Of a stretch of 64,000 nucleotides of DNA, positions 29,004 to 34,892 are shown one piece after another. The stretch is from NCBI GenBank assembly GCA_041390065.1, contig JAWKQQ010000008.1, positions 251,846-315,845 on the forward strand, written 5' to 3'. Position numbers and translations under genes: made by a program. The first letter of the stretch is position 1; each line of letters opens with the position of its first letter. A model generated the notes under the pieces. It saw only the letters and a list, made by a program, of their open reading frames with translations, searched no databases and had not been told where the DNA came from. Source of the DNA: Candidatus Krumholzibacteriia bacterium (GTDB lineage Bacteria; Krumholzibacteriota; Krumholzibacteriia; LZORAL124-64-63).

Positions 29004-30439
29004 TCAGCCGGCGCCGGGATCTTGAACGCCCTCGGTCAACGAGGCCCGCGCCGCGGGATCGTCGAGGCCCACCTCGGCCAGCAGGTCGGAAAACGTCTGG
29101 CGGGCGATGCCGCTGGCCGCGGCGGCGCGCGTCACGTTGCCGCCGGCGTTGCGCAGCTGCGTCGCGAGGTACTCGTGCTGGAAGACACGCAGGAGCTGCT
29201 GCTTGGCCGCGTGGTAGGGCGGCGGCACCGAGCCGACGAGGTCGCCGCCGTAGCTCAGATGGGCGGCGTGGAGCACGTCGCCCCGGCAGCGGATCACCCC
29301 GCGCTCGACCAGGTTGCGCAGCTCCCGGACGTTGCCCGGCCAGCGGCGCTGTTGCAGGTAGGCCAGGGCGTCGTCGGACAGGCGTTCGACGGGACGTCCG
29401 AACTGGGTGGCGAACTGGCGCAGGAAGTGGCGGGCGAGGTGCGGGATGTCGGCCGGGCGGTCGTCGAGGGCGGGCACCCGGATGCGGAAGACGTTGAGAC
29501 GGAAGAACAGCTCGGCCCGGAAACGGCCGGCCGCCACGTCGGCCTCGAGATCCTGGCTCGTGGCCGCGACCACGCGCACGTCGGTCGGCAGCTCCTGCAG
29601 CCCCCCCACGCGGGTGAACGTGCGTTGCTCCAGAGCGCGCAGCAGCTTGGTGTGCAGGTCGGCGGGCGCGTCGCCCACCTCGTCGAGGAAGAGCGTGCCG
29701 CCGTGAGCCTGCTCGAACACGCCCGGCTGGCGCGACTCGGCGCCGGTGAAGGCGCCCTTCTCGTGGCCGAAGAACTTGCTCTCGGCCAGCTCGCGCGGCA
29801 CGGCGGCGCAGTTGACGGCGACGAACGGCCCGTCGGCTCGCGGGCTGAGCTGGTGGATCCGGCGCGCCGCCACCTCCTTGCCGACCCCGCTGGGGCCGGT
29901 GATGAGGACGGTCGACGGCAGCGGCGCCACCTGCTCGATCTCCTGCACGACGATCTGCATGCGCGGGTCGGCGAACTCGAGCCGGCCGTGGCGGGCGTGG
30001 GCCTCGTTCTGGAGGGCGCGCAGGCGGCGGGCCGCCAGACGCTGGGCGAGCGCCTGGTCGATCAGGTGCACGAGCTCGAGGGGGCTGGGCGGCTTGGTGC
30101 AGTAGTGGTAGGCGCCGGCCTTGATGCAGCGCACCGCGTCGCCGGTCTTGCGCGATCCGGTGAGCATGATCACCGGCGGCGGGTCGGGCAGGAGGCGGAT
30201 GGCGGCCAGCAGGTCGAGGCCGTCGGCCTGGCCGCGGCCGAGGTCGAGGTCCAGGAGCACCGCGTCGGGCGGGTCGGCCAGGAGCGCGTCGCGGGCGGCG
30301 TCGGCGGCGGTGACGGCGGCGACGGTGAAGCGGTCGCCGAGCAGGCCGGTGAGGTCGGCGGCGCACCGGGCAGCGTCGTCGCCGAGCAGGAGCTGGACGG
30401 GACGGGTCGCCGGCGTCACGCTGCACGTCCTGGGTGGAC
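29004..30439 (-). CDS. sigma54-dependent response regulator (NtrC family: REC + AAA+ + Fis HTH)
   Basis: REC domain (LLGDDAARCAADL..LLDLDLG). Sigma54 activator motifs GPSGVGKE and ESKFFGHEKGAFTGA. C-terminal HTH. The GTG start is approximate. Confidence 0.8.
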
Positions 30440-32909: not shown

Positions 32910-34892
32910 TCAGGGCAGCAGGGTCACCCGCGTGGTCCGGTTCCGCTCGCCCGCCTGCAGACGCACCACGTAGGCGCCGGCAGCCACCCCGACGCCCCGG
33001 TCGTCACGGCCGTTCCAGCGGGCCGATTGCCAGGCGCCGCTGGCCGATCCGGCGGCGAGCCGCCGGACCTGACGCCCCCGCACGTCGTACACCACGACGC
33101 TCACCGGCGTGCCCAGCTCCGCGCGCCAGCTCACCACGGTGGCCGGGTTGCAAGGGTTCGGCACGGCCGGCAGGAGGCGCGCCGCCGTGGCCGGCCGCGG
33201 CCCGGCCGGCCCCTCCAGCTCGGCCTCCACGAGGCCGCCGCCGGCCAGGGTGAGCGCGAGATGGTAGGCGAGCGGACCCCGGGTCTGCCAGGCGGCGTCG
33301 GGGTCGTGCACCCGGCAGCGGCCGCCGTCGAGGGTGAGCAGCGGATCCGCGGGCGCTCCGTCGAGCAGCACGTCGACGCCGCCGGCGTGGCGGCGTTCGA
33401 GCCGCACCGCGGCGAGGTCGGCGGACGTCAGACCGGTCGCCAGGAGGCTGCCACGGACGCCGCCGTCGGCATCCCAGGCGCAGGCCCAGCCGCCGAGCTC
33501 GACGGGCACCGCGTCGCCGCTGGAATCGACGAAGCGTACCCAGCCGGCCACGGCCGAGCTCGCGACGTTGCCCTCCGGCGCTCCCACCGCGTAGTCGTCC
33601 GCGCCATCGCCGTCGAGATCGCCCGCCCAGGCGCACCAGGCGCCGAAATGATCGTCCGCCGGGGCGGCGACGAGGCCGTCGCGGATCACCTCGGTGAGCT
33701 GGTCGGCATCCGCGACGCTGCCCGAGCCGCCGGTCCACAGGAAGGCGCGGCCGGCCTCGGTGGCGGGCGAGTCGTCGTAAGGCGCCCCCAAAAGCACGTC
33801 GGGCAGGCTGCTGCCCGCGACATCGCCCACGCCGGCCACCGACCAGCCCAGGCGGGCCCCGCCGGCCGGACCGCCGCAGCTGCGGTCGGCCGTGGCGTCG
33901 GCGTCCAGGCCGCCGAAGAAGATCTCCACCCGGCCGCGTTCGGTGCCGCCGTCGTTGCAGAACGGCACCCCGACGGCGAGATCGGGATCGCCATCGCCGT
34001 CGAAGCTGCCCACGGCGGCCACGCTGTAGCCGAACTGGTTGTCGGCGGTCGAGGTCGCGTTGCTCTGGAGCGTGAGGTCGCTGGTCGTGTCCGGTCCGGG
34101 GCTGGGCGACGTGCTGCCGCGGTAGACGTAGACCGCGCCCTGCCGCAGGGCCGCTCCCGTGCCGTTGCTGGGAGCGCCGACGGCCAGGCAGCGGGCGCCC
34201 CCGCCGAGGAAGGCGCCCACCCCGGCCAGCGACCAGCCGAAGCGCTCGTAGGCCAGGTGCCCCAGCATCGTGAGGTCCGGCGTGGTGGCCGGGCCGCCCG
34301 GCGCGCCGAGGTACACGTAGGCCGCGCCGGCCTCGAGGCCGGCGGTGTCGGCCAGGGGTGCGCCGATCGCGAAATCGTCGCGCCCGTCGCCGTCGAGGTC
34401 GCCCAGGGCGGCCAGCGCCCAGCCGAAGTGCGCGCCGGTGGCCGGACTGGCGAGGGTGAGGTCCGGCGTGGCGGAGATCGGCGAACCGCCGTAATAGACA
34501 TAGACCCGGCCGCTCTCCGAGCCGCCGACATCGGAATAGGGCGCGCCGACGGCGAAATCGTCCACGCCGTCGTCGTTCACGTCGCCGATCCGGGCCACGG
34601 CGTGGCCGAACTGCTCGCCGCCGGCGCCGTTCCAGATGCGATTGGCGTTCAAGGTGATCGCCGTGCCACCGAACCATAGGTAGACGCGCCCGGCGTCCTG
34701 GCCCGTGGCGTCGGAACCGGGAGCGCCGACGAGGAGTTCCCCGTCTCCGTCGCCGTCCTGGTCGCCGAGGGCGCTGACGGCGGCTCCGAGGCGAAGACCG
34801 GCCGTTCCCGTTGCATCGCGCACGATGTCGGTGCCCCGGGCGACGGTCGAGAGCAGCAGGACGCTGACGAGCAACAACGGGATGGGGCGCAC
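32910..34892 (-). CDS. secreted FG-GAP repeat (integrin-alpha-like beta-propeller) protein with T9SS type-A C-terminal domain
   Basis: GTG start with a signal peptide. Seven or more FG..GDxDGDGxxDxxxGAP repeats. C-terminus AVPNPCNPATVVSW..VVVYDVRGRQVRRL..GAYVVRLQ. Confidence 0.65.
   Translation of the reverse strand: MRPIPLLLVSVLLLSTVARGTDIVRDATGTAGLRLGAAVSALGDQDGDGDGELLVGAPGSDATGQDAGRVYLWFGGTAITLNANRIWNGAGGEQFGHAVARIGDVNDDGVDDFAVGAPYSDVGGSESGRVYVYYGGSPISATPDLTLASPATGAHFGWALAALGDLDGDGRDDFAIGAPLADTAGLEAGAAYVYLGAPGGPATTPDLTMLGHLAYERFGWSLAGVGAFLGGGARCLAVGAPSNGTGAALRQGAVYVYRGSTSPSPGPDTTSDLTLQSNATSTADNQFGYSVAAVGSFDGDGDPDLAVGVPFCNDGGTERGRVEIFFGGLDADATADRSCGGPAGGARLGWSVAGVGDVAGSSLPDVLLGAPYDDSPATEAGRAFLWTGGSGSVADADQLTEVIRDGLVAAPADDHFGAWCAWAGDLDGDGADDYAVGAPEGNVASSAVAGWVRFVDSSGDAVPVELGGWACAWDADGGVRGSLLATGLTSADLAAVRLERRHAGGVDVLLDGAPADPLLTLDGGRCRVHDPDAAWQTRGPLAYHLALTLAGGGLVEAELEGPAGPRPATAARLLPAVPNPCNPATVVSWRAELGTPVSVVVYDVRGRQVRRLAAGSASGAWQSARWNGRDDRGVGVAAGAYVVRLQAGERNRTTRVTLLP

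Follow-up and report, generated by a model that had tools for sequence, protein, structure and literature searches.

A probable two-component cassette with a beta-propeller sensor kinase beside a clade-core integrin-like gene in Candidatus Krumholzibacteria

Organization of the locus

The window analyzed here is a 64-kb stretch of contig JAWKQQ010000008.1 (positions 251,846 to 315,845, forward strand) from a Candidatus Krumholzibacteriia bacterium, with a G+C content of ~70%. Three co-directional genes on its minus strand encode a secreted FG-GAP repeat protein (32910-34892), a sensor histidine kinase (30416-32821), and a response regulator (29004-30419). An initial annotation had provided the coordinates and descriptions of all three genes, and these were correct on re-analysis. 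The kinase and regulator probably constitute a functional, lineage-specific two-component cassette inserted between two core genes of Krumholzibacteria (estimated probability about 0.6). In this cassette, a membrane kinase of type-I-like topology would be translationally coupled to a sigma54 activator of the NtrC type. The flanking core genes would encode an integrin-alpha-like protein, expressed from a sigma54 promoter and exported by the type IX secretion system (T9SS), on one side, and an M29 peptidase on the other. The evidence for the cassette comprises the domains and motifs of the two proteins, the overlap of their genes, the retained pairing of the genes in other genomes, the layout of the AlphaFold2 model of the kinase, its matches to histidine kinases, an invariant histidine (H517), two promoters, and the mark that an insertion has left at the site. 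The features of the cassette are as follows.

30416..32821, minus strand: sensor kinase, 801 aa, with signal/lipobox, propeller, one transmembrane helix, helical region, and HATPase_c (Pfam, alignment, AlphaFold2)
31427..32695, minus strand: predicted periplasmic beta-propeller, residues 43-465, ~8 blades, four DxDGDG calcium-type loops (AlphaFold2: 32 strands, block pLDDT mostly 80-94)
31361..31420, minus strand: single transmembrane helix, residues 468-487, followed by poly-Arg (sequence and AlphaFold2)
30923..31330, minus strand: cytoplasmic helical region, residues 498-633 (AlphaFold2, profile alignments)
31271..31273, minus strand: codon CAC of His517, candidate phospho-acceptor (His in 50/50 aligned members)
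30452..30904, minus strand: catalytic ATP-binding (CA) domain HATPase_c, with N box N695/N699, G1 box D729-G733, and G2 box G752-G756 (conserved in the family)
29004..30419, minus strand: NtrC-family response regulator and sigma54 enhancer-binding protein, 471 aa (receiver domain, AAA+ domain with GAFTGA, and HTH_8; Pfam, NCBIfam ntrC-like)

Structure of the sensor kinase

The kinase, which is identical in sequence to a protein of a Candidatus Krumholzibacteriia metagenome-assembled genome, has an extracytoplasmic propeller with repeated DxDGDG loops, as initially annotated. Pfam identifies FG-GAP_3 (E 6.9e-13), FG-GAP (E 9e-8), and HATPase_c (residues 685-790, E 3.7e-15) in its sequence, together with a weak match to PQQ_2; unlike FG-GAP_3, Reg_prop gives no match. 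The AlphaFold2 model has a mean pLDDT of 80 and contains a confidently predicted all-beta part (residues 43-465), a transmembrane helix (468-487), the sequence RRRRRR, five helices (498-633), and the CA domain (640-790). The 32 strands of the all-beta part indicate a propeller of about eight four-stranded blades. Because the transmembrane helix is followed by the arginine stretch, the propeller is predicted to be positioned outside the cytoplasm. Four of the blades carry DxDGDG-type loops (DVDGDG 69-74, DLDGDG 122-127, DLDQDG 237-242, and DVDGDG 299-304), which are kept across the kinase family. The closest structural neighbors of the propeller found by Foldseek are ITFG2 and BBS2.

The five cytoplasmic helices are organized as three membrane-near helices, which bear H517, and a hairpin (579-633) that resembles the dimerization and histidine phosphotransfer (DHp) hairpin and lacks a conserved histidine. 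Foldseek matches the cytoplasmic part of the kinase to ZraS, HK853, and CpxA, and the best profile match of the CA domain and the DHp-like hairpin is ZraS (E 4.5e-28). At the N-terminus of the kinase (residues 1-33, window 32723-32821), a hydrophobic segment ends in a lipobox-like LGGC, the cysteine of which is Cys33.

Structure of the response regulator

The regulator gene starts with a GTG codon that overlaps the stop codon of the kinase gene as GTGA. The protein contains the three parts of an NtrC-family activator: a receiver domain (Response_reg, E 2.9e-15) with its pocket, an AAA+ domain (Sigma54_activat, E 3e-65, with AAA_lid_14) with the GAFTGA loop, and a C-terminal Fis-type helix-turn-helix (HTH_8), for which the score of 22.3 bits only marginally exceeds the cutoff of 22. 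The residues of the receiver can be read directly in the sequence as D14/D15 (acidic pocket), D57 (phospho-Asp), T86, and K109, and the GAFTGA loop as 'EKGAFTGAES'. The complete receiver, the Sigma54_activat match, and the GAFTGA loop corroborate the initial proposal that the regulator is sigma54-dependent. More broadly, the Pfam domains, the GTGA overlap, and the retained pairing of the genes support a two-component system that combines a propeller sensor with such a regulator.

A family of propeller kinases

Scanning all 1.84 billion representatives with HMMER identified at least 150 full-length members of the kinase family (750-860 aa, E < 1e-78), counted as representatives at 50% clustering. 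At E < 1e-30 the scan returned 880 matches, the lower range of which may include ordinary kinases. The same search produced ~9e5 HATPase-type matches, so that the propeller input, initially described as rare in sensor kinases, is indeed uncommon, without being unique to this protein. Every family member that bears a name belongs to Candidatus Krumholzibacteria. A word-indexed search with the kinase found only eight relatives, and its repetition with a 50-sequence profile added almost nothing. A metagenome scan with the kinase alignment caught the generic DTGCGIP motif and yielded ordinary kinases, which made it useless for synteny.

The family alignment comprises 50 sequences with identities of 18-48%, and FG-GAP_3 is present in 49 of them. 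Twelve columns are invariant: R206, D241, N255, and D266 in the propeller, the ATP-binding motifs, and H517. The invariant N699, D729, G731, G733, G754, and G756 are those of a GHKL-type ATP-binding site. R490-R492 of the poly-arginine stretch are also conserved. A lipobox-like motif occurs in about a third of the members (15/50); in many of the remaining ones, a signal of the AxA type precedes a conserved LPY motif. These N-termini suggest that the signal is cleaved and that the kinases are single-pass receptors with a type-I-like topology, which is unusual for histidine kinases.

H517 is the sole invariant histidine of the family (50/50 members). It is positioned ~25 residues past the poly-arginine stretch in a membrane-adjacent helix-loop-helix, in the motif RELxLxLLxxLxxxxH[GE]x[LIF][GA][AT]L..LRRLxW. 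The segment was predicted by AlphaFold2 with low confidence.

The pairing of the kinase with a sigma54 regulator is kept in four of six family loci (the window, L001, L002, and L003/L004), down to 27% kinase identity, and the regulator gene is located downstream of the kinase gene in each, as expected for a histidine kinase. The regulator of the window is 72% identical to that of L001 and 38% identical to that of L003. A distant family member that has kept the regulator is encoded beside a gene for an S8 peptidase with a C-terminal domain (CTD) and beside polysaccharide export genes. The 45% identical kinase orthologue in L007 has neither an FG-GAP gene nor a regulator gene as a neighbor. L007 (CAZWYF010000024.1) belongs to a metagenome-assembled genome labelled 'uncultured Fibrobacteraceae'; the label may be wrong, because the contig has ~70% G+C and Krumholzibacteria-like genes. 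Judged by gene order, the conserved unit is the kinase with its sigma54 regulator, and it does not include the FG-GAP neighbor. The kinase family is an uncharacterized variant, with a propeller as input, a non-canonical histidine, and a topology that is probably single-pass, and by names it is confined to one uncultured phylum.

Insertion of the cassette between core genes

The cassette is flanked by genes of a conserved backbone, two of which are:

35079..36461, plus strand: divergent M23 peptidase with LysM_OapA, Csd3_N2, and Peptidase_M23 domains (Pfam and synteny)
27880..28962, minus strand: M29 aminopeptidase (Pfam, position of the promoter motif)

Nine loci, including the window, share the order of divergent M23 peptidase, FG-GAP/CTD gene, and M29 peptidase, and a wider backbone of FabH-ABC-DUF4340 ... 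OAD ... MetRS is recognizable at these loci. The two-component system is located between the FG-GAP and M29 genes in three of the nine (the window, L001, and L002), and the slot is empty in L091, L092, L094, and L095. A multihaem cytochrome occupies it in L096 (8056-9198) and small open reading frames in L093 (9009-9764). In L098, the backbone gene that follows the FG-GAP/CTD gene is separated from it by genes for an HD-GYP-like protein and an adenosine deaminase (8130-10843). The slot following the FG-GAP/CTD gene therefore has the appearance of a hotspot for variable insertions.

At loci with the two-component system, the promoter motif of the M29 gene (TTTGCATTC...ACGATGTTTGG) comes immediately after the regulator gene; at loci without it, the motif comes immediately after the FG-GAP gene. 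This shift of the motif from the end of one gene to the end of the other, with which the backbone synteny agrees, indicates that the cassette is an insertion. Upstream of the M29 gene, the motif is conserved as TTTGC[AT]TTC-N14-CACGATGTTTGG in the window (28963-29003), L091 (~9000-9040), L092, L094, L095, and L002. It resembles the Bacteroidota promoter type with -33 TTTG and -7 TAnnTTTG, unlike the classical TTGAGA-18-TATACT promoter of the kinase gene.

In the tree of FG-GAP proteins the loci with the two-component system are not monophyletic, and L091 and L094 are sister to the window, which indicates that the cassette was lost or moved more than once. It is nevertheless found at the same site in three lineages between which kinase identity has fallen to 48-50%. 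From these comparisons, the two-component system appears to be a dispensable insertion beside a clade-core integrin-like gene and its putative sigma54 promoter.

The secreted integrin-like protein

The gene upstream of the kinase encodes a protein with the following features.

32910..34892, minus strand: secreted integrin-alpha-like protein, 660 aa, with signal peptide, FG-GAP propeller, thigh domain, and T9SS CTD (Pfam, TIGR04183, AlphaFold2)
33525-34835, minus strand: seven-blade FG-GAP propeller (seven FG...GAP repeats)
33213-33509, minus strand: Ig-like 'thigh' domain (model and fold match)
32919-33164, minus strand: T9SS type-A CTD (FlgD_ig, TIGR04183)

The initial description of the protein as a seven-blade FG-GAP propeller with a T9SS tail agrees with its seven FG...GAP repeats (Pfam FG-GAP, E 1.9e-34) and with a match of its C-terminus to TIGR04183 (Por_Secre_tail) at 24.9 bits, marginally above the cutoff of 23. 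FlgD_ig is similarly marginal (27.1 bits against 27). The signal peptide, MRPIPLLLVSVLLLSTVARG, can be read in the sequence, and its combination with Por_Secre_tail, at these marginal scores, is that of T9SS type-A cargo; NCBI names the product a T9SS type A sorting domain protein. The AlphaFold2 model has a pLDDT of 89 and matches integrin alpha headpieces in Foldseek (E 4e-25), and the seven blades with calcium loops are likewise of the integrin-alpha type.

Three further proteins with the same CTD are encoded in the window at 36813-38621 (plus strand), 44538-46379 (minus strand), and 46448-48367 (minus strand); one is Omp28-like and two are GH32-like. Compared with the backbone of L092, L093, and L095, the gene for the Omp28-like protein is itself inserted. 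The presence of four CTD-bearing proteins in 64 kb suggests that a T9SS is in use.

Through a 17-nt inverted repeat at 34891-34948 (minus strand), a CCCCUCC farther upstream could base-pair with both the start codon of the FG-GAP gene and its Shine-Dalgarno sequence in an anti-Shine-Dalgarno hairpin. CCUCC-type segments recur upstream of the gene in L091 and L094, and the fold in the window is no more stable than that of shuffled sequences. A structured 5' untranslated region or riboswitch of the FG-GAP gene was rejected (fold z-score -0.26, no Rfam match).

Relationship of the two propellers

The initial annotation proposed that the propellers of the kinase and of the secreted protein are duplicates and that the kinase monitors its secreted paralog or binds the same ligand. 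Both propellers belong to the FG-GAP superfamily and contain DxDGDG loops, and their genes are adjacent and co-directional in three loci. The profile-profile comparison of the two family alignments by hhalign gives a match with 93.8% probability (E 1.7e-7). However, the match covers only 91 columns, equivalent to two blades, at 25% identity, and is what common membership in a repeat superfamily yields. The pairwise alignment suggested as a check gives nothing by BLASTP (best E 0.33). The kinase propeller has ~8 blades of the FG-GAP_3/PQQ_2 type, resembles ITFG2 and BBS2, and lacks the FG and GAP motifs, whereas the secreted propeller has seven blades of the integrin-alpha type and an Ig-like thigh. 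Similarity thus does not extend beyond the repeat motif to the blade number and subtype that recent paralogs would share. The distributions and rates of change of the two families also differ greatly: in the same two genomes, the FG-GAP proteins are 69% identical and the kinases 50%, and the FG-GAP protein family is the broader and better conserved of the two. The homology is accordingly at the level of the repeat, and the duplication part of the proposal is largely refuted.

Monitoring of the secreted protein by the kinase is not supported either. Each gene is mostly found without the other: six of the nine syntenic loci contain the FG-GAP gene and no two-component system, and the L007 kinase and distant kinases have no FG-GAP neighbor. 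Furthermore, the sigma54 element described below predates the insertion of the two-component system and is absent from the two other loci that carry it. The combined model of duplication and monitoring is highly improbable. The integrin-like neighbor is, as far as gene content can tell, a clade core gene that is not specifically tied to the kinase.

Promoters of the locus

Two putative promoters are positioned upstream of the genes on the minus strand.

35045-35030, minus strand: sigma54-type -24/-12 element TGGCCGGGGTCTTGCA, upstream of the FG-GAP gene, ~140 nt from its GTG start codon (consensus match and conservation)
32870..32899, minus strand: sigma70-type promoter TTGAGA-18-TATACT, after the FG-GAP stop codon and before the start codon of the kinase gene (sole match in 6.5 kb; mean of 0.1 in shuffled sequences)

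The sigma70-type promoter is contained in the 88-nt gap between the FG-GAP and kinase genes, and L001 has TTGAGG-18-TATGGT at the same place.

TGGCCGGGGTCTTGCA is the sole exact match to TGGC-N7-TTGCW in the window, in which sites of its quality occur at about 5e-5 per position. When up to two mismatches are allowed, a scan of the whole window with the sigma54 consensus gives 47 matches against 62 expected. Because there is no window-wide enrichment, TGGCCGGGGTCTTGCA is meaningful only through its position and conservation. When nine orthologous intergenic regions are aligned, seven share invariant -24 and -12 elements at a constant distance from each other, around a variable N4 spacer. The distant FG-GAP orthologue in L098 (44% identical) has CGGCACGAATTTGGCA on the same strand, 45 nt upstream of its start codon. 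The initial suggestion that sigma54 promoters might be found near T9SS cargo genes holds directly upstream of the FG-GAP gene and does not extend to the three other CTD-cargo genes in the window, none of which has a sigma54-type site.

It is conceivable that the TGGCCG-N4-CTTGCA element is not a sigma54 promoter at all and belongs instead to the promoter or transcript start of the divergent M23 gene. The TTGCA of the element overlaps a palindrome, CTTTGCAAAG, which holds a -7 box of Bacteroidota-like type (GATCTTTG) that is directed at the M23 gene on the opposite strand. However, a 10-nt insertion in L092 parts the intact TGGCC...TTGCA unit from the AAGAT box, and L001 and L002 keep the box and have lost the unit; the two are therefore separable. 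The fixed GG and GC elements with their variable spacer, and the same-strand site of the distant orthologue at a different distance from the gene, also argue against an M23 element, which is an unlikely explanation. Since TGGCCGGGGTCTTGCA is the only exact match, has fixed elements around a variable spacer, has a counterpart in L098, and can be separated from the -7 box, it is likely to be the sigma54 promoter of the integrin-like gene.

A second sigma54-like match, CGGCACGCGGGTTGCA (34976-34991, plus strand), faces the M23 gene and has the best consensus score in the window. Only the closest loci (L001, L091, and L094) share it, and L002, L093, and L095 lack it. Because the whole block around it is conserved in those closest loci, its conservation is indistinguishable from simple relatedness, and its status is uncertain. 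The palindrome GGCCACCCTGAGC/GCTCATGGTGGCC (35108-35135), ~100 nt upstream of the sigma54 element, was considered as an activator site and rejected: it is located in the signal-peptide codons of the M23 gene and is not conserved in L001, which carries the two-component system.

Assessment of the cassette

Several results weigh against a functional cassette whose target is the neighboring gene. HisKA-type Pfam domains are absent from all 50 aligned kinases, and residues 495-680 of the kinase, a helical stretch of 186 aa, match no Pfam model at a threshold as loose as E<=10. When ZraS, FixL, and ordinary kinases are aligned with the family by profile, their H-box falls on the helix formed by residues 579-600, which contains no conserved histidine: H580 is present in 10 of the 50 members and is replaced by Phe in the L001 orthologue. 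In L005 (2892-3878), the gene of the distant member P0006 (29% identity) is followed by one for a SpoIIE/PP2C phosphatase, not a regulator. The sigma54 element occurs in seven loci without the two-component system, including the outgroups L093, L095, L096, and L098, and is absent from L001 and L002, which carry it. No conserved upstream activator site was found for the FG-GAP promoter. Neither rpoN nor T9SS components were found in the part of the open reading frames of the window that was scanned.

In the absence of a HisKA domain and of conservation at the canonical H-box position, the phospho-acceptor is only a candidate. The family appears to lack the H-box that defines DHp domains and to keep an invariant histidine elsewhere. 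H517 is the likely phospho-acceptor, and the helix-loop-helix that holds it could equally be a HAMP-like linker. The missing HisKA and DHp histidine would also be expected if the protein were a pseudo-kinase, or a partner-switching GHKL Ser/Thr kinase that adjoins the regulator by chance. HATPase_c_2 is matched as well by 5 of the 50 members, and the phosphatase gene next to P0006 would fit partner switching. This explanation is nevertheless quite improbable, given the invariance of H517 and of the N, G1, and G2 boxes, the sigma54 receiver-containing regulator directly downstream in four of six loci, with overlapping start and stop codons in the window, and the best structural and profile matches to the true histidine kinases ZraS, FixL, and HK853.

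Eight of ten orthologous loci (seven of the nine syntenic loci and L098) have the sigma54 element ahead of the FG-GAP gene, and seven of these eight lack the two-component system. Its presence in the four outgroups indicates that the element is older than the insertion, and its distribution argues against a specific tie to this two-component system. A different activator must serve the element in most genomes, because it occurs where the system is missing and has disappeared from the two other loci where the system is present. It is thus possible, at nearly even odds, that the adjacency is incidental, and that a two-component system residing in a variable slot controls sigma54 promoters elsewhere while another activator serves the FG-GAP promoter. 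The empty or differently occupied slot in six of nine loci and the L007 kinase orthologue in another genomic context are consistent with this possibility. However, only one strong sigma54-type promoter occurs in the 64 kb, and it is located 4.6 kb from a gene for a sigma54 activator on the same strand; moreover, the cassette has been kept at its site in the three diverged lineages. A sigma54 link between the two-component system and the FG-GAP gene in this genome is plausible, although the comparative data do not favor it.

Proposed mechanism

In the proposed mechanism, the calcium-loop propeller of ~8 blades at the outer face of the inner membrane would bind an envelope or extracellular ligand. 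The signal would cross the single transmembrane helix to the helical module, where HATPase_c would phosphorylate a histidine, the best candidate being the membrane-adjacent invariant H517 instead of a residue at the canonical DHp position. The phosphoryl group would pass to D57 of the regulator, and the AAA+ ring would remodel the sigma54 holoenzyme. Phosphotransfer and remodeling follow the established knowledge of the NtrC family. The cassette may be transcribed from its own sigma70-type promoter. Among candidate targets of the regulator in this genome, the nearest is the likely sigma54 promoter of the FG-GAP gene, from which read-through could exert positive feedback on the cassette. Such action with feedback is plausible, though less likely than not.

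A more far-reaching possibility is that the family constitutes a class of receptor histidine kinases not described before and so far restricted to Krumholzibacteria. Its members would have a cleaved signal peptide or lipid anchor, a calcium-loop propeller of ~8 blades, and a single transmembrane helix; the acceptor histidine would have left the DHp hairpin for the invariant, membrane-adjacent position of H517, so that acceptor and dimerization module would be separated as in CheA. They would signal to sigma54 activators, in this genome driving a sigma54-dependent integrin-like surface protein. We consider this combination doubtful.

Comparison with known systems

The cassette resembles ZraS/ZraR, AtoS/AtoC, and NtrB/NtrC in its coupled kinase and regulator genes, in a CA domain and DHp-like hairpin nearest to those of ZraS, and in a regulator composed of receiver, AAA+ domain with GAFTGA, and Fis-type helix-turn-helix. 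In contrast to ZraS- and NtrB-type kinases, its sensor is not a PAS or small periplasmic domain but a propeller of ~420 aa. A HisKA H-box is missing, the sole invariant histidine is membrane-adjacent, ~65 residues upstream, and many family members combine a cleavable signal or lipobox with a single transmembrane helix.

Periplasmic beta-propellers of the Reg_prop/Y_Y_Y type are the sensors of Bacteroides hybrid two-component systems such as BT4663. The kinase described here shares with them a periplasmic beta-propeller as the input of a histidine kinase in a bacterium of the Fibrobacterota-Chlorobiota-Bacteroidota (FCB) group. However, its repeats are FG-GAP_3 and not Reg_prop, it is not a hybrid kinase, and its output is a separate sigma54 activator, whereas theirs is a fused AraC domain. 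PknD of M. tuberculosis is a Ser/Thr receptor kinase with an extracellular NHL propeller. PknD and the Planctomycete VCBS-propeller Pkinase proteins P0278 and P0279 have the same general arrangement of an extracytoplasmic propeller, one transmembrane helix, and a cytoplasmic kinase, and P0278 and P0279 share FG-GAP_3-type blades with the kinase sensor. The catalytic domain is nevertheless GHKL/HATPase_c and not Pkinase, and the orientation is reversed, with the N-terminus outside.

In CheA, the phospho-acceptor histidine is located outside the dimerization hairpin. The likeness to the kinase is by analogy only: the hairpin before the CA domain has no conserved histidine, and the invariant one is in a separate N-terminal helical element. 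Unlike in CheA, Pfam detects no Hpt or CheA domain in the helical region of the kinase (E<=10). The secreted neighbor resembles integrin alpha in its seven FG-GAP blades and Ig-like thigh, and Foldseek matches it to alphaV, alpha5, and alphaIIb at E ~1e-25; it differs in having no beta subunit, calf domain, or transmembrane helix.

The finding has no bearing on any long-standing open question. As the comparison of loci illustrates, adjacency by itself says little about a functional link. The catalogue of extracytoplasmic sensing domains of histidine kinases is still incomplete, and a literature search found no description of histidine kinases with FG-GAP_3/VCBS propeller sensors. The family of at least 150 clusters, all named members of which are from an uncultured phylum of the FCB group, combines propeller input, a type-I-like topology, and the lack of a canonical H-box. 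It provides a concrete test case for how far the DHp module can vary.

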